Position numbers and translations under genes: made by a program | IMG/VR virus record: IMGVR_UViG_3300025082_000016 | Location: 1 to 42,073 of that record | DNA: 42,073 nucleotides | Source of the DNA: a virus | Taxonomy: Duplodnaviria; Caudoviricetes | Strand: one strand, 5' to 3' | Shown here: positions 18,658-35,302 of the stretch, piece by piece | How the letters are laid out: each line of letters starts with the position of its first letter | Numbering within the stretch: position 1 is the first letter of the stretch | Notes under the pieces: model-generated | Seen by the model: the letters and a program-made list of their open reading frames with translations, nothing else | The model's database searches: none | What the model was told of the DNA's origin: nothing

Positions 18658-19629
18658 CTAGGTATAGTTAGTAGACAGGCCTGTAATAACACCCTGTCTA
18701 GAAGCGTTGGAACAAGTCAGGGCACCGAGCCACATAATTTTGGCTACGGCTGCATCCTGATTGACCGGTTTAACGAATTTCTCAAAAGCGAAATTTCGTT
18801 TACGATGATGACGGAAACCCAGATATTTCTCATTAAGGAAGAACATCAAACCATCCGGACAATGATCATCCACAACCACAGGGGTACCACGATAAAGTAA
18901 GTTCGTGAAACCAGCATCGGCCAATGACTTCGATGAAGCACCAAACCGCTTTTGAGCAGTTAGGGATTCTTCGTAGGCATCAAAGACTACTTGCGTTGTA
19001 ACGATGATGGACGGCTTGTCATTATCAACCGTACAGCCACCATACATTTCACGAAGTTGTCTTTGGATGAAATCACCGTGAGTAGAATCTACCATATTCG
19101 CATATGAAGCAGATCCACTAGCAGCAGATTGTGCATCCCACCAAGTGTATGTGTTTGAATCAATTCCACCAAGTGAACGGTCTTCTGCGATGATATGTTG
19201 TAACCCGATGAACTCATCACCGGAATCATCAGTTGAACCGTACAGGGTGCTACCGAATAGATCCTTTAGAGATTTCTCTGCGTTTTTGACCTTGGCCTCC
19301 AATAAATCGACTACACGCTCCGGGCCATCATTGAGCATTTCCTCTTTACCGGAAATACTAATTGTGGCATAAGCCTGTTTCCATTGATACTCCGCATCCG
19401 TGAATACTTCCGTAGGACTAGTGTCCAGGATATCGTATCCACTGAAAAAGCCTTTAGCTTCTGCCTTACCATATTCAAGAGGTTGTAACACCTTGTTTCC
19501 GGAGGCGGCTGCTTTCGACTTTCTTAACATGCGATGCGTAAGAATATTGGAATCGAAAATATTATCGACCAAAAGGGGAATATACTTATCCTTCGTTAAC
19601 GCACTTAAATTGTCATAATTTAAAGCCAT
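18658..19629 (-). CDS. Major capsid protein (HK97 fold)
   Basis: 323 aa after the scaffold gene; DNIF.SN, Y.WKQ....ISISG.E...N.G, GF..L.YRG.PVV.D..CP...MFFLN.KYL motifs. Confidence 0.9.
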   Translation of the reverse strand: MALNYDNLSALTKDKYIPLLVDNIFDSNILTHRMLRKSKAAASGNKVLQPLEYGKAEAKGFFSGYDILDTSPTEVFTDAEYQWKQAYATISISGKEEMLNDGPERVVDLLEAKVKNAEKSLKDLFGSTLYGSTDDSGDEFIGLQHIIAEDRSLGGIDSNTYTWWDAQSAASGSASYANMVDSTHGDFIQRQLREMYGGCTVDNDKPSIIVTTQVVFDAYEESLTAQKRFGASSKSLADAGFTNLLYRGTPVVVDDHCPDGLMFFLNEKYLGFRHHRKRNFAFEKFVKPVNQDAAVAKIMWLGALTCSNASRQGVITGLSTNYT

Positions 19630-19650
19630 TGTTAACTCCTTTGTTTAAGT

Positions 19651-20520
19651 TTACTCATATAGGTCGTATTTTAAAGCCTGTGCTCTTGCTTCGTCAAAAT
19701 TTTCCGGCTTCACATTAGACAAAGATTTAGAACCTTTGTGTTTAACGGATGCTTCGGGAATTGACTTGCTGGCATCGGCTTTCTTTAACGTCTTAACCGC
19801 CTTTGAGAATGAACTATCTACAGTAGCCTTATGATAAGTGAGCACGAATGCATCTTCAAGATTGCTCATCCCTTTATTGATCGCAGTATTCAAAACTTCT
19901 CTAACAGCATTATCTTTACCATCAAGTTCTGGATGGTTCTTGATTAATACCTGGATGTCTCGTTCTACCGCTTGTTGGGCTTCTTGCATCTCTATCTTAT
20001 CTTCCAACTCCTGGATCCGACTATCTGTTGGATCCTTTGTGTCCTGTTGTGTTTGAGCATTTTCATTAGGCTCATCAGTTTCCTGGAATAGAGCGTGGTC
20101 CTCACCAAGGTAATCCTTGAGAGTCTCCATAAGGTCTTCATCTTTCTTTAGATCATCAAACTTTTTCTGGGTTACAGTCAAAGCCTTCCGATCATCAGAA
20201 AGTTGTTGTGCCTTTTTGGTATTGGATTTCTGCCAATCGCTTCTGTTCCGAGAATCATCTATTGCTAGTTTGATATCATCAAGCGAATAACTTTTTCCAT
20301 CCACTTCTACGCTAGTATCTACTGGTGGGGTTTCAATTTCAGATTCAACCGGTTGCTCAATCTCTTGAGTCTGGCCTTCTACGGTGGCTTCCTCACCGTT
20401 GGGTTCACTAGGGGCTTCTGTAGGCTCTGCTGCTACTTCTACTTCTCCGACCACAAGCGAAGCTGCAACATCTGCTTCAACTTCAGCACCATAGATCCCG
20501 CCTTCAATATTTTCACTCAT
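19651..20520 (-). CDS. Capsid scaffolding protein
   Basis: Acidic N-terminus, VDG, DW.K..T.KAQ.LS coiled coil; between portal and MCP; ATG at 20520 follows GGAGG. Confidence 0.8.
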   Translation of the reverse strand: MSENIEGGIYGAEVEADVAASLVVGEVEVAAEPTEAPSEPNGEEATVEGQTQEIEQPVESEIETPPVDTSVEVDGKSYSLDDIKLAIDDSRNRSDWQKSNTKKAQQLSDDRKALTVTQKKFDDLKKDEDLMETLKDYLGEDHALFQETDEPNENAQTQQDTKDPTDSRIQELEDKIEMQEAQQAVERDIQVLIKNHPELDGKDNAVREVLNTAINKGMSNLEDAFVLTYHKATVDSSFSKAVKTLKKADASKSIPEASVKHKGSKSLSNVKPENFDEARAQALKYDLYE

Positions 20521-20622
20521 GCTGTTTTCCTCCAACAAAAGTTAATTTTTCATTGTTCATTTGGTAAATAAAATCCATCATATTTATATACTATCCAAAT
20601 ATATCTGATCATTTTCTTTTTA

Positions 20623-22437
20623 TTATGTTCTTGATCTCATATTTTCAGGGAGTCTATCTATTAGTGTAGGATCTTGCTCAAACTTTTTCATAATATCATC
20701 CTCATTGGTTCCCAGATTTGCCATTTCTTCGGGAGCCATGGGTTCTGCATTACCAGATTGTGCTTTCTGTGCTTCCATTAAGGATCTTATAAGTCTTTCT
20801 TTTCCTGGTAGTTCTATGTTCTCCAGGATATATAGCGGATCCGTAACAAGACCTAGTTGCATAAGCTGCATGATCTTCTGTTCAATCCACTCTCTATTCT
20901 CCGGCAACATAGAACCGGATCTGGCTCTAACTTCAAAGTTCATCCCTTGGAGCATAGCACCTATATATTTCCGGTCCTGCATTCCCTGATCTGTTTCAAC
21001 ACTTGTTAGATGTTCTTCTGTTCCAAGATTTACAATCATAGCTACCCACATACTGCCAAGAGTTTGAATTGCCTGGTCCACAGACCTTGCCTTGAAATCA
21101 ATCTTGGTAGTGGAAGCCTGGCGATAGATCTGTGCCTGAACACCACTTGTTACATTAGCATCAGCTTTACCCTGGGTTGCCTTGTTAACCCCACTAATAG
21201 TTTCAAACATCTCACCTAGCAATGAATAAAAATTAAATACATAATTTGGCATTCCAGCTGGTTGCAGCATGTTCACTGCACCAGGGCCACGTTTCCGGAT
21301 TACGCTACCAGGTTTATTGTTTATTTGATCTACTACATCTGTAGTCTCATCAGCTACCCACATTGGATTGGCCATTAAGTGGGTATTGTCCATCATTTGA
21401 CTGGCTAAACGATCTAAAGATAGGTTTAGAGACTTTAATCTCTTTGGTTCCGGCTTACCCCAAAAACTATGAGCAGATCCACCATTCTTTAATACAATGA
21501 ATGGGAATGGATGAGCCAAATGGTTTTCTTTAGTTAAGAACGGATATCTGGTTGGACCATCATATAATAAAACACCATTGGCAATAGCTGTCTGCCGAAT
21601 CATGCCAGGATATTTATCTATCTCCCGTGATTCGTCTGAAGGATCATCAGCCTCAATATATTCCTTTGTGTAATCCCTGGCATAGACCTCAATTAATAGT
21701 GCTCTCTCTTCTAGATCCTCCATGGCCCTGGAAGAGTTTTCATAATAGTTTGTTTCTGAACCGGTGGTATCAGTGACCTGGACCACATCATCCCCACCAA
21801 CTTGAGCATCATTAATCTTTAATGCTTCGTACTTATCAAGTTTTGATTCTGACTTTACATATTTACCATTCTCGTACTTTTCCCGGATCTCCCATAATGG
21901 GGTTGGTGCTGCATAAATAACATACTCTGCATTCTCCAACTTCGTTGCTGATGGATTCACAAAGAAAGCATAAGGATCTACAACATCAGCATCTGGCAAA
22001 TCATCGTCCTGGAAATGGACCTTTAAGATTCCATTGCCATATACCAGATAATCTAATAACCAATCCGGGATTAAATTTTGCATATCCCTAATTACCCATA
22101 ACTCATCCATTTGCTTTTGTAATATCTCTGCTGCTTTTGTAGATATGTCATCTCCACCTACAGCAATTATATCAATTCGGGGTGGACGGTTAGAAAGAAT
22201 TGGGATCATTGTATCTATAGCACTAGCAATAAGATCTAGCGTAACCTGGTTCTTAAATGCTGGCATATTCATGTTGGTCCAGTGATCACCCATATATAAC
22301 CGTTCAGCTTCCCGCCAAACAGTGGTTGTATTTTCCCTGGCTCGAAAACACATATCAAACATAGCTTCATTTTTCTTGATTATTTTTTCGTGTTTACGGG
22401 TTGGTTTATAAGCCGCTTCAGTTTTTTTCTTTGCCAT
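20623..22437 (-). CDS. Portal protein (podoviral type)
   Basis: 604 aa; LY.GDHW, VYGNGILKV, VDPY.FFV.P.A, FWGK, ETISGV....QG......SG.A motifs; between terL and scaffold. Confidence 0.9.
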   Translation of the reverse strand: MAKKKTEAAYKPTRKHEKIIKKNEAMFDMCFRARENTTTVWREAERLYMGDHWTNMNMPAFKNQVTLDLIASAIDTMIPILSNRPPRIDIIAVGGDDISTKAAEILQKQMDELWVIRDMQNLIPDWLLDYLVYGNGILKVHFQDDDLPDADVVDPYAFFVNPSATKLENAEYVIYAAPTPLWEIREKYENGKYVKSESKLDKYEALKINDAQVGGDDVVQVTDTTGSETNYYENSSRAMEDLEERALLIEVYARDYTKEYIEADDPSDESREIDKYPGMIRQTAIANGVLLYDGPTRYPFLTKENHLAHPFPFIVLKNGGSAHSFWGKPEPKRLKSLNLSLDRLASQMMDNTHLMANPMWVADETTDVVDQINNKPGSVIRKRGPGAVNMLQPAGMPNYVFNFYSLLGEMFETISGVNKATQGKADANVTSGVQAQIYRQASTTKIDFKARSVDQAIQTLGSMWVAMIVNLGTEEHLTSVETDQGMQDRKYIGAMLQGMNFEVRARSGSMLPENREWIEQKIMQLMQLGLVTDPLYILENIELPGKERLIRSLMEAQKAQSGNAEPMAPEEMANLGTNEDDIMKKFEQDPTLIDRLPENMRSRT

Positions 22438-22649
22438 TAGTTTGCCTCTATCTCAATTCCAGTTAAACTTTGTTGTGTTACCTGATTAACGATAGTAATA
22501 AGTGCCTGTCTATAATCATATGATATAGCACCTATTGATTCTATACGATCTATTTCCATGATCACTTCATTTACTTCTGGGATATCTTTCTCTTCCCATT
22601 CTCCAGTCTCTGGATTAAACCATTGCAGATTTAAAGGTCTGATGATCAT
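22437..22649 (-). CDS. Hypothetical protein
   Basis: 70 aa, translationally coupled on both sides (ATGA, TAATG). Confidence 0.6.
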   Translation of the reverse strand: MIIRPLNLQWFNPETGEWEEKDIPEVNEVIMEIDRIESIGAISYDYRQALITIVNQVTQQSLTGIEIEAN

Positions 22650-24019
22650 GCTCTGATCCCTTGATAATCTGTGTCTTCTGATAATAATTTATCTAATTCT
22701 TTCTGCAACCATGGCTTCTGTATTACCTTGGTTGGTGATCCTACATAATGTAAAAAATACCTCATTTGATCAGCATGGTGGTCCTCACCCTTTGTGTTTA
22801 GATCCTCCGGCCTTTTCTCATCGTGGACTAGGGTTGGGATTGTTCTTATAAAATTTGGACATGTTGAAAATACTTTTAACTTTGGCGGCTGCTCTGCATA
22901 GTGATCTAGGTACTGACGGCATAGGTTCCAACCATTAACTCTTTCATTATTAGCTTTAAATAGATTGACTCCAGCACGATTTAAAATATCAGCAATGCTC
23001 ATATTACTTGGTGCTACTACATCGCTCCTATTTGTGTTCTGTGGATTACGGATCCACATACTAGGATCTCCTACTGACATCATATATTCTTCTTGACCAC
23101 TTAATTCTAATATCCTATCTATGTGGTGACTTAACTCTTGGCCAGCTTCGTAATGCTCACGATATAAGTAAACATTCCCGAAAAAGTCTACAGCCCACCA
23201 ACCACAGGCAAATGGTGCTGCAAAACCATAGTCAATAGATCTATACCGGTACCACTCATATGGTATGTCGAAAGGCTCTACTACATGAATGTCATGCCGC
23301 CACTTTTGAAAGAACTGTCCAGAGAATACATCCCAATCTCCATCTAACCAGGCACGCCTTAATTCATCCGGTAATGCCTTCAAACTCTCAATATACTCCG
23401 GATCTTCACGCATAATAGTAGGGTTATCTGTTACCTTACTGGGTATAAAAATCCGTGATTTTCTGCTTTTCTTGTCAAAGTGTGTTTTGTTCTTGGCACT
23501 ATCTACAAACCTGGCCTTCACCCAACCATGGCCAGGACCCCCGGGGTTTGTTGTCGCAAATACCTGGGACGAGATCCCTGGAATTGTACTTCTTGCTGAT
23601 GAGATTAATCTTAAATAATCTAACTCATTAGGGATTAGAGTTAACTCTTCAATTGCAATTTTCTGGTACTCCTGGCCAAGATACTTTGTCCAGGCATCTT
23701 CATTACTCAAGTGACCGGTCCAGATCTTGGCTCCAGATGGAAATTCAAACTGGGCTGGATTTCCGGTTACCTTTACTCCCATATAACGGTACATATGCTT
23801 GGCACGATCTATCCAGTCCTTCAGATCATCGTAATTACGCCTGATTACTAAACCCCTGTATCTAGGACTCTTTATATAATCCGGCTCTACCATCCAGACT
23901 GTCATTGCTTCAGTCTTTCCTCCACCCCTGGATCCACCAAATAAAATCTCTGATTCCTTACGGGTTAATACTTTAGTCTGGGGACCCGGATGGGGCTGCC
24001 ATATGACTCGCTCTTCCAT
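22646..24019 (-). CDS. terL: Terminase large subunit
   Basis: Walker A GGSRGGGKT, Walker B IAIEE, TTNPGG.GH.WVK, nuclease SIDYG and EDH.AD..RY. Confidence 0.95.
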   Translation of the reverse strand: MEERVIWQPHPGPQTKVLTRKESEILFGGSRGGGKTEAMTVWMVEPDYIKSPRYRGLVIRRNYDDLKDWIDRAKHMYRYMGVKVTGNPAQFEFPSGAKIWTGHLSNEDAWTKYLGQEYQKIAIEELTLIPNELDYLRLISSARSTIPGISSQVFATTNPGGPGHGWVKARFVDSAKNKTHFDKKSRKSRIFIPSKVTDNPTIMREDPEYIESLKALPDELRRAWLDGDWDVFSGQFFQKWRHDIHVVEPFDIPYEWYRYRSIDYGFAAPFACGWWAVDFFGNVYLYREHYEAGQELSHHIDRILELSGQEEYMMSVGDPSMWIRNPQNTNRSDVVAPSNMSIADILNRAGVNLFKANNERVNGWNLCRQYLDHYAEQPPKLKVFSTCPNFIRTIPTLVHDEKRPEDLNTKGEDHHADQMRYFLHYVGSPTKVIQKPWLQKELDKLLSEDTDYQGIRA

Positions 24020-24255
24020 TACCGGTTACTCTTAAAAAACTCTACTAGTAGTTTAATGTCTGATTTAATTTCTGCCATAGACTCCTTCAATTCAGCCATT
24101 GCCCTAGCATTGTCTTCGTGTCTTTTACCAAATTCATTCTTTACCTCATACAAACTAAACACCAAAAATCTGTATAGTGCATAAATGGCTCCGAGTAATA
24201 AAATTAACGGTAAACCATATTGTTCAATCAATGCAAAAATTTTGTTGAGTTCCAT
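24019..24255 (-). CDS. Single-TM holin-like membrane protein
   Basis: 78 aa; QYGLP + hydrophobic helix + coiled coil, as in BhlA/UviB-type holins. Confidence 0.5.
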   Translation of the reverse strand: MELNKIFALIEQYGLPLILLLGAIYALYRFLVFSLYEVKNEFGKRHEDNARAMAELKESMAEIKSDIKLLVEFFKSNR

Positions 24256-24510
24256 TTACTTCTTTTTCTTACCCGCAACACCTTTTGTTTTAAGGGCTTC
24301 TTTTGCTTCCTTTTCATAGCGACCATCTCCCCAGCCTGGGAAAAATTTGTCCCTAAAAGATTTTTCTAACTTTTCACTCCAATCCAATAAACTAATATCT
24401 GGAAAGTGTTCGTTTAACCATTCTTTTCGCTTTTTACATCCAGGACATTCTGGTAGGTTAGTAAAACTCGAAATAATAGTTGCGACAAAATCACCTAGTG
24501 GTTTACTCAT
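24256..24510 (-). CDS. Hypothetical protein with C.GC..RK..LN motif
   Basis: 84 aa, coupled to the upstream gene. Confidence 0.55.
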   Translation of the reverse strand: MSKPLGDFVATIISSFTNLPECPGCKKRKEWLNEHFPDISLLDWSEKLEKSFRDKFFPGWGDGRYEKEAKEALKTKGVAGKKKK

Positions 24511-24758
24511 TTGCTTTCTATCCTTCCGCTTTTATGTATTATTGATACTTCAAATTCCTTGTGTGAATAACAGTAGGCCTCTATTAGTACGGCACCATAA
24601 CCCCAGGGAATTGGATAAAATTCTGCTGGATTATATCTATGATATACTCCCTCTGGATCCTGTATGGTTATTATTTTCTTTAATTCTGAATCATTCAATA
24701 CCTCCATATGAGAACACCCCATTAAAGCAACTAATATAATTACTATTATATATTTCAT
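24507..24758 (-). CDS. Predicted lipoprotein
   Basis: MKYIIVIILVALMG-C signal peptide with lipobox. Confidence 0.6.
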   Translation of the reverse strand: MKYIIVIILVALMGCSHMEVLNDSELKKIITIQDPEGVYHRYNPAEFYPIPWGYGAVLIEAYCYSHKEFEVSIIHKSGRIESK

Positions 24759-24773
24759 CCTGGTACCATAATC

Positions 24774-25259
24774 CTAATCCGGGACTCCTACTTCCGAAGG
24801 TGGGGTAGGGGGGTCTTTTTCCTGGGTGACTTCTTCTGGGGATGAGTAATTTGACTGGCTGTCTCTTACCCCCGGGCCATCATATACGGGAAGTGGGGTG
24901 GGGGGGGTCCTCGCCTGGTCATCATCATCACCTGGCAGCACCTCAAGGTCTATCAGATCTATAGGCACCTTACCAGGCATCATTATCACCCCTATATGGT
25001 TCTGCACGTCAGTCTTTATCTCCTGTGCCTTCAGATCAGGTGCTATCTTGTTGGCCACTATCTTCCAGGCATCCTTCTGCCTGGGATCATTATCATCTAG
25101 TGCAGCAGCCAATATCTTCTCTATCACTAGAGGCACAGATGGGTGCTCCCTCAAGTACTTGCCAAAGTGACTAGGCTTACGACCACCAGGGTTACCGCTT
25201 ACACCTGGTACCCAGTTGGGGTTGCCACCCTTACGCTTCATCTTGCCGTTCTTCTTCAT
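24774..25259 (-). CDS. terS: Terminase small subunit (DUF5681-like)
   Basis: W.PG.SGNP.GR motif; first gene of the late operon; ATG at 25259 preferred over TTG at 25277. Confidence 0.7.
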   Translation of the reverse strand: MKKNGKMKRKGGNPNWVPGVSGNPGGRKPSHFGKYLREHPSVPLVIEKILAAALDDNDPRQKDAWKIVANKIAPDLKAQEIKTDVQNHIGVIMMPGKVPIDLIDLEVLPGDDDDQARTPPTPLPVYDGPGVRDSQSNYSSPEEVTQEKDPPTPPSEVGVPD

Positions 25260-25265
25260 ACTACT

Positions 25266-25282
25266 ACTACGTTCCAACTACA
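25266..25282 (-). promoter_or_regulatory. Putative operator TGTAGTTGGAACGTAGT
   Basis: Near-identical to 35041-35057 and 35241-35257; overlaps the expected transcription start. Confidence 0.55.
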
Positions 25283-25290
25283 TTATACCA
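25282..25290 (-). promoter_or_regulatory. Extended -10 promoter for the late operon
   Basis: Minus strand TG-G-TATAAT ~22 nt upstream of the terS ATG. Confidence 0.55.
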
Positions 25291-25392
25291 ATTGCAATAG
25301 GGTTCTCCCCGGTGGACATACGCCTAATGAGCCAATGATACTGCTTTCCACAATAAGACCCCTTAATTAGTGGTCCTTAATGTTCATTGACA

Positions 25393-25439
25393 ATGATCCA
25401 GGATCCGGCAGCATGATCCAGGATCCGGCAGCATGATCC
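25393..25439. repeat. 20-bp tandem repeat ATGATCCAGGATCCGGCAGC x2 plus a partial copy
   Basis: Exact copies at 25393 and 25413; ATGATCC at 25433. Confidence 0.9.
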
Positions 25440-25563
25440 CGATTCCTGGGGATTGCCAGCGTGGCTGATTAAACTAATTTTTACTTTATTCACATTACAT
25501 TATAATATATAGGGATTCTCTTCCACAAACATAAACGGAGAAAATCATTTATGAAACTTTTCC

Positions 25564-25592
25564 TTGCTTTTAAAGTTATACTTGTATACCTT
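25564..25592 (+). promoter_or_regulatory. Possible sigma70-type promoter for the recombinase operon
   Basis: TTGCTT-N17-TACCTT; an alternative TTTACT-N16-TATAAT lies at 25480-25507. Confidence 0.35.
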
Positions 25593-25637
25593 TATTGTAG
25601 ATTATGAATCAATTAAACAACATAAGGAGACTAAATC

Positions 25638-26780
25638 ATGGCTAGTGTTTATAAAAGGGGAGACATTTACTGGGCTAATTTCAGCACAGCAGATGGATCT
25701 CAAAACGCTGTCAGTACCAAGATTCGGATTTCAGTTTATGGTCCTAGGAAAGCCAGGCAATTAGCTTTAGAACAGGCTATCAAATGGGAGCGTAATGAAG
25801 TTGACAAACGAGTCAGTGGTATTGATTTTGCTAGTTTAGTGGATTCCATTTCTACACTGGATCCATCTGACAAGACCAAACTAGCACTCGTTCTGGTCGA
25901 TCACCTACCAGACAGTTATCAAACAAATGGTGATACTCTCACATCAACAATAACATATAGTGATTGCCGGGACAAATGGCTTTCCAAGGTTAGCAGCCGG
26001 AAATCAGCTGACTGGATCAAAAGAGAAATCGTATGCCATAAATTCTTTATTGAATTCGTTGGTGGTGATACTCTCATAAGTTCAGTTACAACAGAGAATG
26101 TTGATGATTTCATCGTTAGCCGGGAAGGATTAGGCAAGGCAGCAAACACGATTAACAACTACCTCAAGCCGGTATCGCAGCTATTCAATTATGCAGTTGC
26201 GAATGACCTGGTCACGAAGAATCCTGTTAAGTATGCACAGAAGCCTGGTACGGCAACTGTTGTAGAATGGGATTACATTCCTGACGATGCATTTGATATA
26301 GTAATCAACGATGCTAACGATTCAGATAAAATCTTCTGGACCTGGTTGCGGTACACCGCTTTGAACCCTAAAGATGTAAGTGCTTTAACTCCCGCCAGCA
26401 TCGAAGCTGACAACAAGGGTAACGGCAGACACATCAACGGTAAAAGAGCCAAGAACGGCAGACTGGCCAGGATCCCGGTTCATCCCAATATTGAGAAGGC
26501 TATCTCAACTTATGGTGATGATTGTTTTGGGATATATCCTAACAAGAGTGCCAGAGATAAATCCAACAAGAGATTCAAGATAGCACTTGCTGGCCAGGGG
26601 ATCGACAGTGTAATTGCAGCAGTCAGACATACCTGTGCTACCAACCTTCTAGAATCAGGATTAAGTCTAGATGAAGTTGCACTGATCATGGGTCACAGTG
26701 ATACCACAATGCTCAAAAAGATCTATGTCAAGCATGTGGATCAGGTTAAAGCATACGAAGCCATTAAGCGGCTGAAGTAA
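25638..26780 (+). CDS. int: Tyrosine recombinase/integrase homologue with a degenerate active site
   Basis: Arm-binding-like N-terminus (MASVYKRG..YW), core-binding domain (TINNY...V.QLF.YA), RHT.AT.L...G, MGHS, C-terminal Tyr. Box I reads YTALNPKD and box II reads AAVRH. AAGGAG RBS. Confidence 0.85.
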   Translation: MASVYKRGDIYWANFSTADGSQNAVSTKIRISVYGPRKARQLALEQAIKWERNEVDKRVSGIDFASLVDSISTLDPSDKTKLALVLVDHLPDSYQTNGDTLTSTITYSDCRDKWLSKVSSRKSADWIKREIVCHKFFIEFVGGDTLISSVTTENVDDFIVSREGLGKAANTINNYLKPVSQLFNYAVANDLVTKNPVKYAQKPGTATVVEWDYIPDDAFDIVINDANDSDKIFWTWLRYTALNPKDVSALTPASIEADNKGNGRHINGKRAKNGRLARIPVHPNIEKAISTYGDDCFGIYPNKSARDKSNKRFKIALAGQGIDSVIAAVRHTCATNLLESGLSLDEVALIMGHSDTTMLKKIYVKHVDQVKAYEAIKRLK

Positions 26781-26962
26781 TGGCAATCAAAAAACGAAGT
26801 GAAGTTGAAGGCCTGGACGAAGGAATCCAGGCCTTTGATATTATAGAAGATGTCCAGTGGCTAGAAGTAGGCAAGTCGTTGGCAATGTCTTATTTCGCCT
26901 GGGTATATTATCAATGGGCAATACATACATTTAAGATTTTCATTAATTACCTAGCCAAGTAA
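26780..26962 (+). CDS. Hypothetical small protein, possibly membrane-associated
   Basis: 60 aa, TAATG-coupled to int. Confidence 0.5.
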   Translation: MAIKKRSEVEGLDEGIQAFDIIEDVQWLEVGKSLAMSYFAWVYYQWAIHTFKIFINYLAK

Positions 26963-26970
26963 GGAGAAAC

Positions 26971-27159
26971 ATGACAACAGACAAAAACAAGGAACCAGGG
27001 ACATGGACATTGAGCCAGGACGATATAGATCTTATGAGAAGAATGTTTAGCACATCCATTCGTGTAGGTAAGCGGAACGGTGATAAGCTATACGTTCAGA
27101 AGGTCCAGCAGTTCAGGGATCAATTTGATGATCACATAATCGAAACCAAGGAGGATTAA
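26971..27159 (+). CDS. Hypothetical protein
   Basis: 62 aa, AAGGAG RBS. Confidence 0.6.
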   Translation: MTTDKNKEPGTWTLSQDDIDLMRRMFSTSIRVGKRNGDKLYVQKVQQFRDQFDDHIIETKED

Positions 27160-27300
27160 ATGAATCTTATTGACATACTAAATTACCAGCCATTAGGAGA
27201 TCATGGTGTGAATTCCCTATTAAGCATTAGGATGTTTCACATCATTCTCATTACCTTATTTGCCTGGATATACAGGCTGCATAAAAAGGAGACTGAATAG
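27160..27300 (+). CDS. Small hydrophobic peptide (46 aa; not in the ORF track)
   Basis: AAGGAGG RBS; MNLIDILNYQ...FHIILITLFAWIYRLHKKETE; exactly fills the gap between its neighbours. Confidence 0.55.
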   Translation: MNLIDILNYQPLGDHGVNSLLSIRMFHIILITLFAWIYRLHKKETE

Positions 27301-27302
27301 CC

Positions 27303-27509
27303 ATGGCCAAGCCAGTAACAGAATATAAACTTGTGAAGATACAGATCAGCGGATCAGAACATGACCGACTTCACCAGGTGGCCAAGGAACTCAAGGTGAG
27401 TTACCAACACCTGGTAGGAAGTATACTACGACAGTATCTTAATGATGTGGGTCGGCCATTAATCATTCGGTCTCTTCAACGTGAACTAGAAGAGCCAGAA
27501 TCCAGGTGA
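27303..27509 (+). CDS. Ribbon-helix-helix-like DNA-binding protein
   Basis: VKIQIS.SEHDRL..VAKELKVS...LV..IL..YL pattern; AAGGAG RBS. Confidence 0.6.
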   Translation: MAKPVTEYKLVKIQISGSEHDRLHQVAKELKVSYQHLVGSILRQYLNDVGRPLIIRSLQRELEEPESR

Positions 27510-27531
27510 TAGAGGTTCTATAAGTCTTTTA

Positions 27532-27561
27532 CCTACCTCGCAGAAGAGCACGCAAGACAGG
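27532..27561 (-). terminator. 11-bp G-U-rich hairpin between convergent operons
   Basis: Minus strand CCTGTCTTGCG-TGCTCTTC-TGCGAGGTAGG. Confidence 0.45.
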
Positions 27562-27565
27562 AAGG

Positions 27566-27778
27566 TCACTTAATTGTGGCCTTTTTGTTTTTTAAGTATA
27601 TATATTCATCCCTGGACATTTTAATAATCTTATTTAATTCAGATCTGCTGCACTTCCACAAATACTTACGTCCCACAACAGACCGTATATTTAATAGGCT
27701 ACGCTTTTCGCCTATCCCATCCGGATAATCACATTGGGATCTAGCAATAATTTTAATCAGATCATAATCATCTGCCAT
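27566..27778 (-). CDS. Hypothetical protein
   Basis: ORF-track 74-aa frame; ATG (MADDYDL) at 27778 is the likely start. Confidence 0.5.
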   Translation of the reverse strand: MADDYDLIKIIARSQCDYPDGIGEKRSLLNIRSVVGRKYLWKCSRSELNKIIKMSRDEYIYLKNKKATIK

Positions 27779-27947
27779 GGAACTTGTCAAACATATAAGA
27801 TCCCAGCATAAGCAGCGGAACAGCTATAGCCGTACCTACTAGTAGTAACACTAGAGATAAGCCGTATGCAAGGCTTATAGCGATATCTATGAAGGTTTTA
27901 TAGGCACTCTTCGCACTGTCGGAACACCTTCTACTGTATTTCCCCAT
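27768..27947 (-). CDS. Small membrane protein (59 aa; not in the ORF track)
   Basis: MGKYSRR...IAISLAYGLSLVLLLVGTAIAVPLLMLGSYMF...; fills the gap between overlapping neighbours. Confidence 0.45.
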   Translation of the reverse strand: MGKYSRRCSDSAKSAYKTFIDIAISLAYGLSLVLLLVGTAIAVPLLMLGSYMFDKFHGR

Positions 27948-28075
27948 TTGTCTTCTTCCAGTTGATTCAAACGATCCCGTAATTTGCCAGTATCTTTTTT
28001 CTGGGCATGCCGCTCTCTGATTAGATCCCGGTATACAGATCGTATTAAGTAATCATTTCGTGTTGATTTTTTCAT
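27887..28075 (-). CDS. Hypothetical protein
   Basis: ORF-track 66-aa frame; likely start MKKSTRN. Confidence 0.45.
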   Translation of the reverse strand: MKKSTRNDYLIRSVYRDLIRERHAQKKDTGKLRDRLNQLEEDKWGNTVEGVPTVRRVPIKPS

Positions 28076-28217
28076 TAAGTTTATCAATCTTCTTGGTTAT
28101 CTGATCCAGCGTGGCTTCAGCCGAATCCAGCCGCTCAAGAATAAGTTTTCTTGTATCTTTCTTCTCCGTGTACTTAACCCTTACACCTGGTATGGTTGTA
28201 TTTCTACTATTTTTCAT
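28053..28217 (-). CDS. Small coiled-coil protein (54 aa; not in the ORF track)
   Basis: MKNSRN...LILERLDSAEATLDQITKKIDKLNEKINTK; fills the operon gap. Confidence 0.45.
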   Translation of the reverse strand: MKNSRNTTIPGVRVKYTEKKDTRKLILERLDSAEATLDQITKKIDKLNEKINTK

Positions 28218-28228
28218 AGTCAATAAGT

Positions 28229-28642
28229 CTATTCTTTCTTGATATCAAGTAACAATTGTTTCACTCTCTCTCTAGCTTCCATCTCTACCTCCTTGGAGAT
28301 TTTGATAGTGCGTTTCTCATCCTTCTGTTGTTGCAGCCACAGAATTTCCTGGGGTGTTATTTTGTTTATAAGAAGTTCCCATGCCTCGGCTGGAGACTGG
28401 TCCACCTGATTGTGACATCCAATACAGAGAGATACACAATTTATCGGTTCCCATCTGGTGGTCTTGTTGGCTCTTCCAAACCACACATGAGCACAGTGTA
28501 GGCCCCTGGAATCTACACCCTGGGTAAACTTCTTCCCGCATCTTTGACAGGTCCAATCATCCCGGTGACGAACATATTCCGAAAACAATATATCTGTTCG
28601 GGTCCGTTTTATTCTTTCCCCTGCACCTGGCCACATAATCAC
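28229..28642 (-). CDS. NinG/Rap-like HNH-type recombination endonuclease
   Basis: D.LFS.YVR.RD..TC..CG...HCAH...R....TRW...NC..LC..CH. Confidence 0.8.
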   Translation of the reverse strand: MIMWPGAGERIKRTRTDILFSEYVRHRDDWTCQRCGKKFTQGVDSRGLHCAHVWFGRANKTTRWEPINCVSLCIGCHNQVDQSPAEAWELLINKITPQEILWLQQQKDEKRTIKISKEVEMEARERVKQLLLDIKKE

Positions 28643-29139
28643 ACATCCTTTTTTAACAGATCACCAAGTAACTTTGTTTGACCGGATCTCATGCCTACTA
28701 CCTTTTTAGTTTTAGATCCTATCCCCAGTAACTGTTCATTAACAACGTACTTATATTTAAATCTTACTTTCTTTTCTAATATCACATCCGATAAATTACC
28801 CACACTAGTTTTACCCCCCAGTTCATTTAGGATCTGGTAGCTAACAGAATGGATCTGCGATTTATTCCATGACTCCCCAGTGGTTACCTGGATCACTTTT
28901 TTAAGATCCTTCATCACCTGATCAAAAGTAACAACCTTATCTTTTATCAGTTTAGTAATATCAGCTACTTTAGGAAAGAATTCACTCTTGCTCACCCATT
29001 CCCTAACAGCGTTGGTAACAGTAGATAACTCATAGATCCCCAGCTGGTCATAGTACACTCTCATTGTACCATCACTAAATTCTTTATTGTAGGCAGTGTT
29101 TAAGTAATGCATAACCTTTGTAAAGTCCTGTTTATTCAT
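28639..29139 (-). CDS. Replicative helicase loader/inhibitor-like protein
   Basis: M...DF...M..L..AY......VYY..L......V..AV.......FFP.VADI; directly after the initiator gene. Confidence 0.65.
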   Translation of the reverse strand: MNKQDFTKVMHYLNTAYNKEFSDGTMRVYYDQLGIYELSTVTNAVREWVSKSEFFPKVADITKLIKDKVVTFDQVMKDLKKVIQVTTGESWNKSQIHSVSYQILNELGGKTSVGNLSDVILEKKVRFKYKYVVNEQLLGIGSKTKKVVGMRSGQTKLLGDLLKKDV

Positions 29140-29905
29140 TGGCCCAGTCATCGTATTGCTTTTTATTTCTATTCCTTTCACTGGCCATTGCAATCATTCC
29201 ATTCCAGGTATTTCTTAACATACCAACATTAGGATTCTTTTTTGCAAATGTATCTTTCTTAATATATTCCTGGAAGAAGAACCCTATACCAGCAGCTACT
29301 GGATCAAAGCCATACTGTTTCTCCAATTCTTGGAGGATCTTCCCATCCTTCCCAAACGATGCATGATACTCTACGCCAGTATACTCTAGATAAAACTCCC
29401 CAAAGATGGACAGCAATGTTGGAGCGGCAGCTTCAACCACACCATTCTTAACATTCTTTACATTCTTTACATTCTTGTCTTTCTTTACATTCTTTAGTTG
29501 TGTCCGTTGGTTGTACTGTTTGCTGTCCGTTGGTTGTACTGTTTGCTGTCCGTCAGTTGTACTGTCGGTTGGCCGCAGATCCTGGTAAGTCCCGTAGTTG
29601 CAGATAGTTAGGTGTGTCCATAAGTGTGTCGATTTGCGTACCACCATTGTGTCGTTTTCCAGCATGTTGATGTACCGCCTAACCTTACCCCGGGACCAGC
29701 CCCATTGCTTGGCCAACTCTGCCAGGCTAGTGATTAATTCCCCCCGTTTGATCAATACCATTTGATCCTGGACCAGCCATTTTTTGGTCTTATGATTAGC
29801 CATCATAAGCAGCTGGATCCAGGCTTTTAGATACTCTGCATTAGCAAATATCCAGTGGTCCTTCAGATCCCTATGGATCTTAATCCATCCATGCTCTCTC
29901 TTCAT
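29132..29905 (-). CDS. Phage replication initiator protein
   Basis: GWIKIHR....HWI, LLM.ANH, I.RG..ITS...LA..WGWS..KV.R....LE, TICNY..YQ; internal iterons. Confidence 0.85.
   Translation of the reverse strand: MKREHGWIKIHRDLKDHWIFANAEYLKAWIQLLMMANHKTKKWLVQDQMVLIKRGELITSLAELAKQWGWSRGKVRRYINMLENDTMVVRKSTHLWTHLTICNYGTYQDLRPTDSTTDGQQTVQPTDSKQYNQRTQLKNVKKDKNVKNVKNVKNGVVEAAAPTLLSIFGEFYLEYTGVEYHASFGKDGKILQELEKQYGFDPVAAGIGFFFQEYIKKDTFAKKNPNVGMLRNTWNGMIAMASERNRNKKQYDDWANE
29442..29566. repeat. Putative replication origin: 9-bp AT-rich repeats plus 23-bp iterons
   Basis: ACATTCTTT-type unit x6 (29442-29495); TGTCCGTTGGTTGTACTGTTTGC at 29501 and 29524, with a degenerate copy at 29547. Confidence 0.75.
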
Positions 29906-29908
29906 TGA

Positions 29909-30133
29909 TCACTCTTCTGGTTCGGTTGGTTCGAACCGGTTACCATAATCTTCGGGATCTTCCTTGTAACCACAGTCTTCACATTTAATCCCAAGATCAC
30001 TCTCATCAGGTGTTCGGGGTCGTATGTATTCCTCAAAAATGACATTCTTTGAATCGCATTCAGGGCACTCTATTTGGGTGGATTCAGCGGTTGACCGTAT
30101 AACCCCGGTGAAGTGTTTTTTAAATTTTGGCAT
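29909..30133 (-). CDS. Small zinc-ribbon protein
   Basis: CPEC...CEDC; GGAG RBS. Confidence 0.6.
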   Translation of the reverse strand: MPKFKKHFTGVIRSTAESTQIECPECDSKNVIFEEYIRPRTPDESDLGIKCEDCGYKEDPEDYGNRFEPTEPEE

Positions 30134-30389
30134 TGTTTATTCTCCCAGTTATGTTTGTTATACAGGTGCATGGATTCCTATTACAAAGTTCGCACCTACC
30201 AACTTTGTCCTGTTTTCTTGTAATATCAATTGGGTTCATATCGTAGAATTCTTCATAATGGTATTGTATCGGTTCTGAATGTTCTTTACACTCACTACAT
30301 AGATCATTGTCTGGCCAACCTGGTGTAGCATATGATGCACCACAACAGTCTGAAACTTCTTCATCATCATGGAAAAAAATATTAACCAA
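30120..30389 (-). CDS. Small Cys-rich protein
   Basis: SDCCGA...CSECKEH...CELC...C.C; the start codon is uncertain. Confidence 0.55.
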   Translation of the reverse strand: MVNIFFHDDEEVSDCCGASYATPGWPDNDLCSECKEHSEPIQYHYEEFYDMNPIDITRKQDKVGRCELCNRNPCTCITNITGRINNAKI

Positions 30390-31692
30390 TTAAGACCATC
30401 CTAGCTACAGTTGGTTTAAAATTACCATATCTTGCAAATTGATTAGATTGCTCTTGATAATTAATATTAAATCCAATATCCGTAACTTTTGCAGCAAGTT
30501 TATCAAGATCAATAAAACGTCTATAATGATTATTATATATAAATTCATTTTCTGATAATTGAATACCCTTCCCATACAATTCATCTTTTGGTGTACGAAA
30601 CTCAAAAAACAAATAAGTACCTGGGCTGCTATAGCGATATAATTTCTGCATCAATAAGGTTTCATCCAGTTCCGTTAACCCATGTAAAACAAACCTACAA
30701 TAGATAATATGATAGCGGCCTATGCTCTTATTGATGAAATATATAATATCTGATTTAATAACATCAAGAGAAGCACCCTTTTTTAACAGATCACCTGAAC
30801 ATTCACTTACCGCACTATCCACAGCAGTAACATTTAATCCCTGCCTGATAAAATAATAATCATCTCTATTATCGCCACATCCTAGATCCAAGAGATCTAG
30901 TTTTTGTGGCAGTGCATTACCCATAGACTGAATATATTCGACAACATAATCCGCAAATAAACTTTGCCTATAAAGTCCACACCAATAATTCACATCAATA
31001 ACAGAAGGTACATGAGTATTTAAAAAAGCAGAGGACACCTTTTTCAGGTGTATTTTTCCTAAATTATTGTAGCTATGCTCCATGGCTTCCTTTAAACAAT
31101 ATTGACCATATAATCTTTTTAAATAATCTTCGCTTTTATTAAATATGTTAACAGTATAACCACCAAAGTTTCTAGTTTTCAATGGATAAATTTCATTATA
31201 AGAAATTTTATCTTTTTCTTCACAATATTTTTTAAAACCCACTGGACGGTAATATAACTCATCATCACCATCTCTAAATCCACGAAAAATAAAAACATCC
31301 AAATATCCTTCACCCAAAGCCTTTAATTGGTTTACCCCTGGGGATGATCTAGGTTTAGGAATGAGGTCCGATATATTCTTTTCTCTATAAATGCGTAAAC
31401 AAAATTGATCAGGTATATTTTTTGGCTTACCAGATTTTACCAAATTATAACCCCATCTATTTAATGCTCTAATAAATCCTGGCGAATTAACAGTTACATA
31501 ATCCTGCGGAAAAATGCAAACATCCGCATCTTCATCCCAGGGAATGATCCCATCATGTCTAATACATCCAAGCAATGACCCATAAGCTAAACTGGATATT
31601 ATACAAAACTCTTCACACAACTTAAACCAAACATAAATTACTCTATATAATTCGTTATGTCTGATAGAGTCACTCTTACACATCCTTTGCAT
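30382..31692 (-). CDS. LicD-family nucleotidyltransferase fused to a class I SAM-dependent methyltransferase
   Basis: N-terminal YGSLLG.IRH.GIIPWD.DADV, LDVF, YL..LYG; C-terminal LLDLGCG..RD, AVD.A, IYCRF.LH, HYRRF. Confidence 0.85.
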   Translation of the reverse strand: MQRMCKSDSIRHNELYRVIYVWFKLCEEFCIISSLAYGSLLGCIRHDGIIPWDEDADVCIFPQDYVTVNSPGFIRALNRWGYNLVKSGKPKNIPDQFCLRIYREKNISDLIPKPRSSPGVNQLKALGEGYLDVFIFRGFRDGDDELYYRPVGFKKYCEEKDKISYNEIYPLKTRNFGGYTVNIFNKSEDYLKRLYGQYCLKEAMEHSYNNLGKIHLKKVSSAFLNTHVPSVIDVNYWCGLYRQSLFADYVVEYIQSMGNALPQKLDLLDLGCGDNRDDYYFIRQGLNVTAVDSAVSECSGDLLKKGASLDVIKSDIIYFINKSIGRYHIIYCRFVLHGLTELDETLLMQKLYRYSSPGTYLFFEFRTPKDELYGKGIQLSENEFIYNNHYRRFIDLDKLAAKVTDIGFNINYQEQSNQFARYGNFKPTVARMVLIG

Positions 31693-31858
31693 CCTTCTTT
31701 TTCTTCACAGATGTTCCCACCCTTCTAGAGTGCAGGATCCTTGCCATAGCATGGCTACCTATGGGATCCTTTTCTGCATCGGCTGCTGCGATTGGAAACC
31801 ATTCTGAATCCCAGGCCACAGCTTTGCTCTCTGGGAACTTTTTAACTTCTAGTATCAT
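31676..31858 (-). CDS. Hypothetical protein
   Basis: 60 aa overlapping both neighbours. Confidence 0.45.
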   Translation of the reverse strand: MILEVKKFPESKAVAWDSEWFPIAAADAEKDPIGSHAMARILHSRRVGTSVKKKKDAKDV

Positions 31859-32114
31859 CCTTTTTCTCCTTACGTTGTAATTGGATTATCTTACATGCAA
31901 GATAGACACATGAATCAAGTAATTCCTCTAAAGTCTCCTGGATCATATCCCGCTTATCATCAACCAGTATCTCTTCTCCATACTTTTCAGCACCTGCAGC
32001 TAATCTCTTTTTAATTAGATCTATAACGTCTTCGTTAATTCTTTTCGCATCCTTAAACATATAACCTCGCCTATGTATATCATTAACCTTTACTGTATTA
32101 CTCCATGCTGGCAT
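31842..32114 (-). CDS. Small all-alpha NTP-pyrophosphatase (MazG-like) fold protein, putative
   Basis: RL..G.EKYG...D...E..EELLD..VYL acidic helix motif. Confidence 0.45.
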   Translation of the reverse strand: MPAWSNTVKVNDIHRRGYMFKDAKRINEDVIDLIKKRLAAGAEKYGEEILVDDKRDMIQETLEELLDSCVYLACKIIQLQRKEKKDDTRS

Positions 32115-32556
32115 TGTGTTCCTTATTAGGTAAAATAGTCCAAAATTTTATTGGTACATCATAGAAATATTCTCCTTCTGGCATAGAATTGTTTGGAACT
32201 TCAATTAAGCCACACTTTAGAATTGTAGGTGAATCACAAACCATTAAAGTATCCCACTCCGAAGATTTGACGGAATATTCCGAAGATACGATATGATGGA
32301 TCACCACCACATAATAAATATCTTTTGTTAAAAACTTTGTTTTGCGTTCTGGCACATGCACTGTATCATATGGCCAGTTTTCGGAATGTATGGTCCTACG
32401 TTCTACCTCATACCTTGGTGCCATAATATCTACACCATATTTATCAGGGTTTTCGATTGCTGCTACACCATGAGCACGTAGGTAATTTAGAACAACATCC
32501 TTACCGGCTGCATCATTAGCAGCATGGTTACCCGCATTGAATGGTTTGTGTTTCAT
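32098..32556 (-). CDS. Putative PD-(D/E)XK-like nuclease
   Basis: NPD.YG.D......EVE.R...VPERK.K; ATG at 32556 preferred because the upstream extension overlaps an RNA hairpin. Confidence 0.45.
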   Translation of the reverse strand: MKHKPFNAGNHAANDAAGKDVVLNYLRAHGVAAIENPDKYGVDIMAPRYEVERRTIHSENWPYDTVHVPERKTKFLTKDIYYVVVIHHIVSSEYSVKSSEWDTLMVCDSPTILKCGLIEVPNNSMPEGEYFYDVPIKFWTILPNKEHNASME

Positions 32557-32577
32557 ATCCGAGGTACGTGAAAGGGG

Positions 32578-32644
32578 AGCCAGGGCAAACTTATGCCATG
32601 TGGGAGCATGGGGAGACAAGACAACTAGAAAGCCTACCCTGGCT
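32578..32644 (-). ncRNA. Intergenic structured RNA element (cis-regulatory candidate)
   Basis: 15-bp stem AGCCAGGGTAGGCTT/AAGTTTGCCCTGGCT with G-U pairs, enclosing CCATG-CTCCCA-CATGG. Confidence 0.5.
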
Positions 32645-32655
32645 AAATACCCTTA

Positions 32656-32907
32656 TTAAAACGGCAGATCGTCAGCCGGTTGCTGCTGGGATTGTGCTGG
32701 TTTTGGTTCGTAAAATGATGCCCGCATGTACTTCGGCTTTGACGGATCCTTGGGTGCCTTTGGATATAGCCTGGCCCGCCAGATCTTTCCCGCAACATTA
32801 CAGGTCATATTTCCCCAGTAGTTATTTGAATCATCATCGCTTCCATTAGGGTCATATTCTTCATTCTTGAATATGGTACCGGTGTTCAGCTTGTGTTCGA
32901 ATGCCAT
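32656..32907 (-). CDS. Small SSB-like protein
   Basis: G.IFKN...YWG.....G......Y; acidic DDLPF tail typical of SSBs; AAGGAG RBS. Confidence 0.65.
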   Translation of the reverse strand: MAFEHKLNTGTIFKNEEYDPNGSDDDSNNYWGNMTCNVAGKIWRARLYPKAPKDPSKPKYMRASFYEPKPAQSQQQPADDLPF

Positions 32908-32913
32908 GGTTAA

Positions 32914-33870
32914 TTACTCCTTTGTTGTTTGTTTATGATAGAGATTGAATTCTTTCGGTGGTTCCTTCTTTATGGTTGGAAGTACATTTCCAGATTTGGT
33001 CTTGCTTTTCTCATGCCACAAATGACTAGCAGACAAAAACGCATCATAATTGTATGTCTGATACGTTAATGTGTAGGTGGGATCACCCCGGTAACTATCC
33101 TTAACATACAGTCCCGCAATGTAATCAATGGGTAACTCCGGATGTTCTGTCTCCCAGCCAAGTTTATAAGCCGAATTCTGATAAGCATGGGTTGGGTAAG
33201 GTGCTCCAGTTTTTAGATCTACCAGGATAAGGCTTTCCTTCTTTGAATTTTTAGCCTTCTTGAATTTCAGCAGCATATCCAATCTACCAGCAAAGGGTAG
33301 TTCAGGTGAATATATTGGATATTCTACTGCCACCGGTGTGGGTTTTTTATCTTTCCAGAATGCACAAAATGAAGCCAGGTATCGCCTGATTGAATGAGCG
33401 AACTGTTCTTCTTTATCGTAAAAGTACCGCCAGGATTCATCATTGGTCTGGATAATATGATTGAGGATCATATTTGTATTTACTGTGGATCCCGCAACTA
33501 GAGCATGCATCCAATAGTGTACATGAGATCCCCTTGTCGCAGCTGCATCTCTATGCCTTGGTGCCATGTGGCCAAGATTCCTATTCCAGAGATTAAACCC
33601 AGGTCCTTTATCCAAGACACTTAACTGGGTTGTAACACTAGGCCGCCAGTTAAGTAAATTAATATCTCCAACATTGTGATACCAACGCCCATTGGATAGA
33701 TCCTTATGGGTTATTTCCATGGTAGGCTGGATTAGAGTCGGACTCGTATCCAATTCCGGGACCGGCTGTGCTATTTGATAGCCCTGGGATACAAGAAGAT
33801 CCAACGCATCTTGGATACTAGTTCCTCTCTTTATCTCGTTATTACCTGATTTTGTCATTATTGTTGTCAT
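32914..33870 (-). CDS. PD-(D/E)XK exonuclease
   Basis: PSVTT.L, RGS.VH, VE, FAGRLD, LVDLKTG, Q.SAY; AAGGAG RBS before ATG at 33870. Confidence 0.85.
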   Translation of the reverse strand: MTTIMTKSGNNEIKRGTSIQDALDLLVSQGYQIAQPVPELDTSPTLIQPTMEITHKDLSNGRWYHNVGDINLLNWRPSVTTQLSVLDKGPGFNLWNRNLGHMAPRHRDAAATRGSHVHYWMHALVAGSTVNTNMILNHIIQTNDESWRYFYDKEEQFAHSIRRYLASFCAFWKDKKPTPVAVEYPIYSPELPFAGRLDMLLKFKKAKNSKKESLILVDLKTGAPYPTHAYQNSAYKLGWETEHPELPIDYIAGLYVKDSYRGDPTYTLTYQTYNYDAFLSASHLWHEKSKTKSGNVLPTIKKEPPKEFNLYHKQTTKE

Positions 33871-34400: not shown

Positions 34401-34444
34401 AATCTTTATGTGAGCCGCTTCTTGTCTAGTCTGCCTAGTCTGTA

Positions 34445-34609
34445 TCAACCAATGCCTCCCCTGGTTTTTATGAAATGCCTGTAACAATACCTTGGAATAG
34501 TTTCTTTAATGAGAATCAACCTTGCTTTAATCTTTTTACCACAAACCTTACAACCATGTTTACTTAATTTTGTATAAGGATAATGAACACCATTAAATAT
34601 TTTTCTCAT
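34445..34609 (-). CDS. Small basic CxxC protein (54 aa; not in the ORF track)
   Basis: ATGA overlap with the HTH gene; CKVC...CY.H. Confidence 0.55.
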   Translation of the reverse strand: MRKIFNGVHYPYTKLSKHGCKVCGKKIKARLILIKETIPRYCYRHFIKTRGGIG

Positions 34610-34791
34610 ATACTATTGACTGTTCTCTTTTTGGTTTTAAAGTCAGCTAGATCTTTAGAATCTATGCGGTAGGATCTATACCCCAAACGATATGCTGGCA
34701 ACACTTTGTCTTTAATGAGTCTTCGCACTTGGATTACTGACACAGATAGCTGGTCTGCGACCTGTTTGATAGTGAGTAGATTTCCGGACAT
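34606..34791 (-). CDS. Excisionase/HTH_17-family DNA-binding protein
   Basis: LLT...VA..L.VS...V.RLI....LPA.RLG....RI...DL..F; AGGAG RBS; first gene of the early operon. Confidence 0.85.
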   Translation of the reverse strand: MSGNLLTIKQVADQLSVSVIQVRRLIKDKVLPAYRLGYRSYRIDSKDLADFKTKKRTVNSI

Positions 34792-34866
34792 ATTATGCTC
34801 CTAATGTATGTGGATATATAATAAACATTACTGTAATGTATAAAACTTTCACCATATCTTCTACTT

Positions 34867-34994: not shown

Positions 34995-35018
34995 TATACA
35001 GTCAATGAACAATAATAT

Positions 35019-35057
35019 TGTAGTAATAGTGTAGTATAAGTGTAGTTGGATTGTAGT
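35019..35057 (+). promoter_or_regulatory. Array of four TGTAGT hexamers at 11-bp period
   Basis: Copies start at 35019, 35030, 35041 and 35052. Confidence 0.7.
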
Positions 35058-35240
35058 GAAGTATGTATACTTATTGTATAAAACCAATTAAATTAGCATA
35101 CTTTTGATAGGGGAAACAAGCGTGTTACCCTTCGACAAAATATCATCCGAGGGAGAATCTCCGTCACAAGCTTATCAGGCGTGTTGCACGCTTTCCAAGC
35201 CCGTGCATAACCGTCAATAAATTGGTGCTATGTTGGTGAG

Positions 35241-35257
35241 TGTAGTTGGAATGTAGT
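35241..35257 (+). promoter_or_regulatory. Pair of TGTAGT hexamers at 11-bp period
   Basis: TGTAGTTGGAATGTAGT, 200 bp from the matching pair at 35041. Confidence 0.65.
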
Positions 35258-35291: not shown

Positions 35292-35302
35292 CTGGGGCCA
35301 GC

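Follow-up and report, generated by a model that had tools for sequence, protein, structure and literature searches.

A phage integrase family without the box I arginine and box II histidine is probably an active recombinase with a rewired catalytic site

The box I arginine (Arg-I) and the box II histidine (His-II) are conserved in about 91% and 87% of tyrosine recombinases, respectively, so exceptions to both are known (PMC2943603). The Cre variants H289A and H289G are still active (PMC2943603), while Arg173 can be replaced by lysine or histidine only, and Arg-I is nearly essential in Cre. These data suggest that the loss of His-II can be tolerated and that the loss of Arg-I needs a replacement. 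About 9% of tyrosine recombinases have no Arg-I, and Gibb et al. 2010 did not decide between dead and rewired enzymes for this group, naming inactivity as one possible explanation (PMC2943603). IntDOT is described as using, in place of Arg-I, an arginine that lies downstream of it where the first strand ends (PMC8138268; 10.1101/542381). In the Int_CTnDOT profile published in PMC8138268, as read by eye, arginine has only 0.33 and asparagine 0.08 at Arg-I, aspartate has 0.82 three residues on, and the top residue two positions before the catalytic lysine (Lys-2) is arginine at 0.27. In lambda Int, the box I aspartate contacts both Arg212 and the loop carrying the Lys-2 position (PMC2943603). 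A regulatory precedent is found in KplE1 IntS, an integrase that autoregulates by binding att sequences over its promoter (PMC2951348). The literature drawn on also includes PMC2034462, PMC2817482 and PMC5812530.

The stretch of DNA analysed here (the window) is one virus record of 42,073 bases carrying terminase, portal, capsid, podovirus-like adaptor and polyvalent-protein genes, and the sequencing runs that contain this phage are marine. An integrase gene and four small ORFs, all on the plus strand, occupy the space from the small terminase gene to where the early operon ends. Of 30 loci obtained in a terminase search, 17 have the integrase at the same place, the other 13 ending too soon to show it. 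No second recombinase was detected among the 38 ORFs of the record scanned with Pfam and PHROG. The small gene that closes the integrase operon (Table 1) is, by its pattern, presumably ribbon-helix-helix-like. Elsewhere in the record, the giant polyvalent protein gene, with ART-PolyVal, DUF7178 and LPD38 domains, is split across the two ends (1-7310 and 39331-42073, minus strand), and relatives carry it as single ORFs of 2178 and 3351 aa; since the record is cut inside this gene, the phage genome is probably circularly permuted. The minus strand also encodes a LicD-methyltransferase fusion (30382-31692) that is confined to the closest records, as well as a peptide deformylase (33867-34487) that carries a SEC-C motif. 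Just past the endolysin-like gene, a conserved element GGAGAACAGC is followed by a G+C hairpin (35262-35300 in the window) in all records read, including L013, L014, L023, L076 and L077; it is possibly a terminator or an antitermination site.

Table 1. Features of the integrase region and the attP-like interval, in window coordinates
Feature	Position	Strand	Basis
Site A: inverted arm repeat pair copy (25266-25285) and core-like ACGC-N7-GCC (25320-25333), just upstream of small terminase gene	25263..25336		Sequence match, putative
Palindrome upstream of integrase operon, likely operator	25575..25589		Related 14-mers in up to 10/13 intergenic regions; single copy in window
Tyrosine integrase gene, 380 aa; arm-binding-like, core-binding and catalytic domains	25638..26780	+	PF00589, PF13102, phrog_1 (E 2.5e-34), AlphaFold model, fold match to lambda Int
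Asn243 at Arg-I position	26364..26366	+	Asn in 15/16 family rows, Ser in 1
Asp246, box I acidic residue	26373..26375	+	Invariant (16/16); Asp in 33/34 proteins without Arg-I vs 39/132 with Arg-I
Arg270-x-Lys272, predicted substitute arginine and catalytic lysine	26445..26453	+	R-x-K in 16/16; covariation; Int_CTnDOT profile positions 280, 282
Ala327 at His-II position	26616..26618	+	Ala or Gly in 15/16, Tyr in 1, His in none
Arg330, His353, Tyr363 nucleophile	26625..26726	+	Each kept in 16/16
Small conserved gene closing integrase operon	27303..27509	+	Homologues in relatives; no convincing Pfam match
Excisionase-like winged-helix gene, first of early operon	34606..34791	-	PF12728 HTH_17, E 5e-11; putative excisionase by family and position
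attP-like site: TGTAGT repeats (35019-35057, 35241-35257) around cores	35019..35257		Arm-type role suggested by position and phage specificity
Second core-like element matching tRNA-Ile(GAT) anticodon arm over 14 nt	35170..35183	-	8/8 genomic loci fetched with the 14-mer are tRNA-Ile(GAT); putative role
13-nt core matching tRNA-Ser(GGA) anticodon arm, without T arm or acceptor half	35188..35200	-	Identical in 7/7 aligned records

An earlier note, made from the letters of this DNA alone, had read the gene as an integrase with two replaced catalytic residues and proposed a non-catalytic, exapted protein or, as a second option, a rewired active site. Domain matches (PF00589, PF13102) and a Foldseek search with the AlphaFold model, whose best PDB match was lambda Int (E 2e-10), place the core-binding and catalytic fold of the lambda Int family in the protein. 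In the model, residues 3-59 form three strands and a helix (pLDDT 86-91 over residues 1-50), and an N-terminal arm-binding domain of the temperate-phage integrase type is predicted, in keeping with the arm-binding-like N-terminus of the note. A profile alignment to lambda Int, weak overall (probability 33.5%, E 4e-4), sets TALNPKD on TGQRVGD, RAK on QSK and AAVR on HELR, and box II falls in the same register when the protein is aligned to Tn1549 Int. The canonical arginine of box I and histidine of box II are absent: the codons read N243 (AAC, 26364) and A327 (GCA, 26616), just as the note had reported for its boxes YTALNPKD and AAVRH. It was equally right about what remains, R330 (AGA, 26625), H353 (CAC, 26694) and Y363 (TAT, 26724), and about the integrity of the ORF, which has no internal stop. 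A single contig from an independent run, X16, covers 26114-26884, both substituted codons included, with four differences, all at other positions, and N, RxK, A, RH and GH..Y recur in all 13 further proteins read from the 90% cluster to which the window's belongs; an assembly error is thereby rejected. RNA run X20 yielded one 210-nt contig inside the integrase gene and no evidence of expression. The cultured phages searched contain no close relative (159 records, all below 60% identity). The ribosome-binding site (AAGGAG) is present, and the gene overlaps the following ORF at TAATG, both of which the note had counted as signs of retention; the downstream ORF varies between relatives, so coupling to the integrase is not a conserved feature.

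The 16 rows of the family alignment share 30-86% identity with the window's protein. Four residues that characterize the lambda Int family, Lys, Arg-II, His-III and Tyr, are kept in every row, while only 16 of the 175 catalytic-domain columns are invariant. Comparison with relative L006 gave a dN/dS of 0.10-0.11 at a dS of 0.9-1.0, and values among closer pairs ranged from 0.09 to 0.26, with one pair reaching 0.40; among close relatives, 12 of the 15 variable amino-acid sites fall in the catalytic domain. Read from these comparisons, the substitutions are old and under purifying selection. Recent decay is rejected because dN/dS is about 0.1 and the substitutions are conserved across the family, as the note had surmised when it saw no sign of decay, and its proposal to examine homologues is answered by asparagine in 15 of 16 rows (serine in the other) and by a His-II position that is never histidine. 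The gene also lacks the signature of an inactive pseudo-recombinase, namely a lost or relaxed nucleophile and remaining catalytic residues. The harm that the note attributed to the loss of His-II appears overstated, since Cre H289A and H289G stay active (PMC2943603); His-II would be dispensable. That the whole family is nonetheless non-catalytic and kept as a DNA-binding or architectural protein, the headline reading of the note, draws on the replacement of two pentad residues, on the near-essential Arg-I of Cre and on the inactivity that Gibb et al. name for such recombinases. The invariance of Tyr363, Lys272, Arg330 and His353 at 30% identity speaks against it, as does the active precedent of IntDOT, and we regard this reading as very improbable.

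We consider it probable that the integrase is instead an active enzyme with a rewired site, in which the box I arginine would be replaced by Arg270, at Lys-2 relative to the catalytic Lys272. Two links lead to this view of a likely working enzyme: a stand-in arginine is predicted on a neighbouring loop, and the attachment sites of relatives are of the ordinary tRNA type. The R-x-K motif occurs in all 16 family rows, down to 30% identity. Outside the family, arginine at Lys-2 was found in 18 of 21 proteins without Arg-I vs 13 of 132 with Arg-I (Fisher p 2e-12, kinship uncorrected). This set consisted of 169 proteins from homologue searches, of which 3 fragments were dropped and 166 scored, 13 family rows being set aside; it was drawn with a family-built profile, and its rows are related to one another. 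Two of the three proteins that lack both Arg-I and an arginine at Lys-2 have R-x-K a few residues upstream, and the third lacks the tyrosine. Five matches bearing PF17293 show the same pattern, with Arg-I lost and arginine at Lys-2. The loss of Arg-I corresponds to 8 changes on a FastTree tree, and an independent-pairs test of this loss against arginine at Lys-2, with only 3 pairs on supported branches, was not significant. Among other candidates for a compensating arginine, Arg238, Arg278 and Arg306 were rejected as variable in the family and Arg312 for want of covariation (5/21 vs 42/132). The covariation of Arg270 with Arg-I loss argues against a non-catalytic family. It also bears on the earlier note directly: of its two options the rewired site is supported, by the invariant Arg270 and its covariation, and the exapted protein is not, the note itself having named a nearby arginine in place of Arg-I as evidence against the latter, which at the level of sequence Arg270 provides. 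By analogy with lambda Int, whose box I aspartate touches both this loop and Arg212, the position of Arg270 is plausibly within reach; Arg270 would approach the scissile phosphate from the beta2-beta3 loop, and Asp246 would position it. The study of IntDOT by Kim et al. 2010 reportedly concerns R285, beside K287. The arginine two positions before the lysine in the Int_CTnDOT profile is, we assume, the residue tested in IntDOT.

About 9 kb separate the integrase gene from the attP-like interval of the window, which is bounded by the excisionase-like (HTH_17) gene and the endolysin-like gene. This interval was read in eight records from outside the window's clade, and in all of them a tRNA half lies between paired direct repeats, forming a tRNA-matching core with flanking arm repeats, whereas the window has anticodon-arm cores only. 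The halves derive from tRNA-Ser(GGA) in L013, L014, L023 and G017, from tRNA-Asp in L010 and L024, from a CAT tRNA in L012 and from tRNA-Val in G018. At the Rfam gathering score only the L012 half was recovered (one match in nine loci); the others score below it and rest on a pattern test and on reading of the anticodon loops. The Ser(GGA) pattern retrieved whole tRNA-Ser(GGA) genes at 60 of 66 loci; three of the remainder are the phages themselves and three end at a contig edge. Seven of these eight records encode an enzyme of the N/R/G type (Arg-I, Lys-2 and His-II positions) and G018 one of the S/R/Y type, and six, all but L013 and G017, have an XRE gene (cI-like) in the interval. The diversity of tRNA targets and the phage-specific repeats suggest continued use of the sites, and halves of four different tRNAs would imply retargeting by recombination; this, with the lack of a second recombinase among the 38 ORFs of the window's record, weighs further against a non-catalytic family. 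The earlier note had also set attachment sites used by the same variant against its exaptation proposal, and the attP-like tRNA halves in N/R/G-A relatives appear to be such sites. The integrase would recombine attP with the anticodon loop of a host tRNA gene, the HTH_17 protein would act as directionality factor, and the phages of the window's family are probably temperate. The T stems of the G017 and G018 halves are mismatched (L076 1295-1315; L077 1330-1350), so some attP halves may be drifting.

An attP adjoining the integrase gene was considered and rejected: ARAGORN detected no tRNA in the window, and both the 20-nt tandem repeat (25393-25432) and the 81-nt insertion (25340-25420) found there are absent from close relatives and therefore not needed. 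This insertion, which has a hairpin and a 20-nt tandem repeat, is missing from L002, L005 and L006; 51 of its nucleotides recur with other flanks in a deeper contig from three runs, and a viral scan returned only 4 close relatives. The gap between the small terminase gene and the integrase holds variable cargo ORFs, on the integrase strand, in L008, L010, L012, L023, L024 and L026, and the five that were scanned had no Pfam match. In the sister clade, a tRNA-Gly(CCC)-like 3' half with weak Rfam support lies between paired repeats directly after the integrase of L028 (9430-9478), a classical int-attP layout; that integrase has Ser at Arg-I, Lys at His-II and Trp at His-III.

Immediately upstream of the small terminase gene, every phage carries its own repeat pair a third time, together with a core-like element (site A). 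The site A match exceeded all 132-154 random windows in 8 of 10 records and was non-significant in L010 and L024, where 4 of 152 and 27 of 154 random windows scored as high. In a 7 x 7 cross-test, every site A scored best on its own attP (31-40 vs 24-30). The 7-nt spacers of site A and attP differ, and the orientation is inverted in most phages and direct in L010 and L024, so site A is more likely a binding site than a crossover site. The same features make an internal switch hardly credible, in which the integrase would join site A to attP within the phage genome and so invert or excise the 10-kb early region. The copying of each phage's own arm repeat and core-like halves would fit such a switch, as would the ligation of mismatched overlaps by IntDOT; all loci nevertheless share one gene order, and no joint between site A and attP was present among those listed for the four runs mapped on 19000-38900. 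Site A may instead give the integrase an added regulatory role at the start of the late operon, where it would probably also bind. A conserved binding-type site at the late operon and a gene distant from its attP could be cited for the non-catalytic reading as well; of the architectural role proposed in the earlier note, this putative second binding site is the trace that survives.

The window's own lineage departs from the eight outside records. In the window, L018, L004 and L007, the repeats, the 13-nt Ser core and the second Ile core are retained, but T arm, acceptor half and cI are all missing, and with an attP of this form integration would not rebuild the tRNA. Searches for integrated copies were negative within their scope: no attL or attR junction was present among the joints listed in 4 + 4 sequencing runs (contigs), no host junction was found among the 66 tRNA-Ser loci or in viral contigs with the window's own core, and a GTDB scan for members of the integrase family returned only one weak, unrelated match. 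The longest contig in the family clusters is phage-sized (42,983 bases). One junction candidate, L165, was rejected as a chance match in an unrelated phage, and 22-nt matches in run contigs are probably chance too. Ca. Marinimicrobia bins contain sister proteins that have Asp at Arg-I together with R-K-K (cluster P0031), a host hint, and one member of the window's cluster lies in a Flammeovirgaceae bin. A family that is active in general could accordingly include a window lineage that no longer integrates classically and keeps the protein mainly to bind site A and an att remnant, for regulation or genome-dimer resolution. The missing cI and tRNA 3' half, the lack of host junctions in runs, tRNA-Ser loci and viral contigs, the clustering of variable sites in the catalytic domain and the one pair with a dN/dS of 0.40 would agree with this. 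Still, L013 and G017 likewise lack cI there yet have a full tRNA half, the window and L004/L007 have the same core region despite diverged neighbouring intergenic DNA, and neither the catalytic residues nor the arm repeats nor the excisionase-like gene have been lost; a non-integrating lineage is unlikely.

A further, speculative extension of the rewired-site reading, which we find rather doubtful, is that the integrase is an active minimal R-K-R-H-Y enzyme that would also repress the virion genes through the att-derived copy at the late-operon start, the tandem Ser/Ile double core offering a choice of two host tRNA genes that would be left unrestored. If true, such a repressor role could let lineages drop cI. 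In the literature outside subscription papers, we found no description of the window's phage family or of the Asn/Arg/Ala-Gly combination, and no tested case of Arg-I loss together with Ala or Gly at His-II. The basic trick is already known from IntDOT, and our comparisons point to rewiring having arisen more than once, which bears on the question Gibb et al. left open. Naming Arg270 and candidate DNA sites provides the means to test the rewiring, and the additional att-like site offers a lead towards integrase control of late genes. Genes with such substitutions should not be annotated as inactive.

Comparison with described systems places the window's integrase among several of them. With the lambda-type integrases that use a tRNA attP it shares three domains, arm repeats flanking a core with a 7-nt centre and an excisionase-like gene, and several relatives of the window phage have a cI-like gene; it differs in its rewired site, its attP about 9 kb away and its third arm-and-core copy at the late-operon start. 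The predicted binding at site A is analogous to that of KplE1 IntS, which binds att sequences over a promoter and regulates transcription (PMC2951348), but in KplE1 the true attL overlaps the integrase promoter, while the att-like copy of the window is a separate one, flanked by the divergent late and integrase operons. IntDes (PMC8138268; 10.1101/542381) likewise has both the first Arg and the first His altered; by description, however, it carries Gly (or a shift) and Tyr and is confined to Desulfovibrio, unlike the Asn and Ala/Gly seen here. The integrase resembles IntDOT/IntCTnDOT, as presented in these two sources, in the absence of Arg-I, the Asp as box I acid, the Arg at Lys-2 and an arm-binding domain, and the alternative arginine near the catalytic lysine is found here as Arg270-x-Lys272, which corresponds to positions 280 and 282 of the profile. 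Activity is established for IntDOT, the integrase of a conjugative transposon, whereas the activity of the window enzyme, from a phage with a tRNA-type attP, is predicted. The PF17293 arm domain has no match in the window integrase, and His-II is kept in 6 of 7 IntCTnDOT-like matches but is Ala/Gly in the window's family. A common clade with the PF17293 group was rejected by an AU test (p-AU 9.6e-7) on 39 rows with a quick tree, LG+G4 and the trait columns dropped, which included six IntCTnDOT-like matches, five of them with PF17293. The integrase of the window is thus likely to work in the manner of IntDOT while standing outside the IntCTnDOT subgroup, and its sequence is best read as a convergent variant of the known IntDOT trick.
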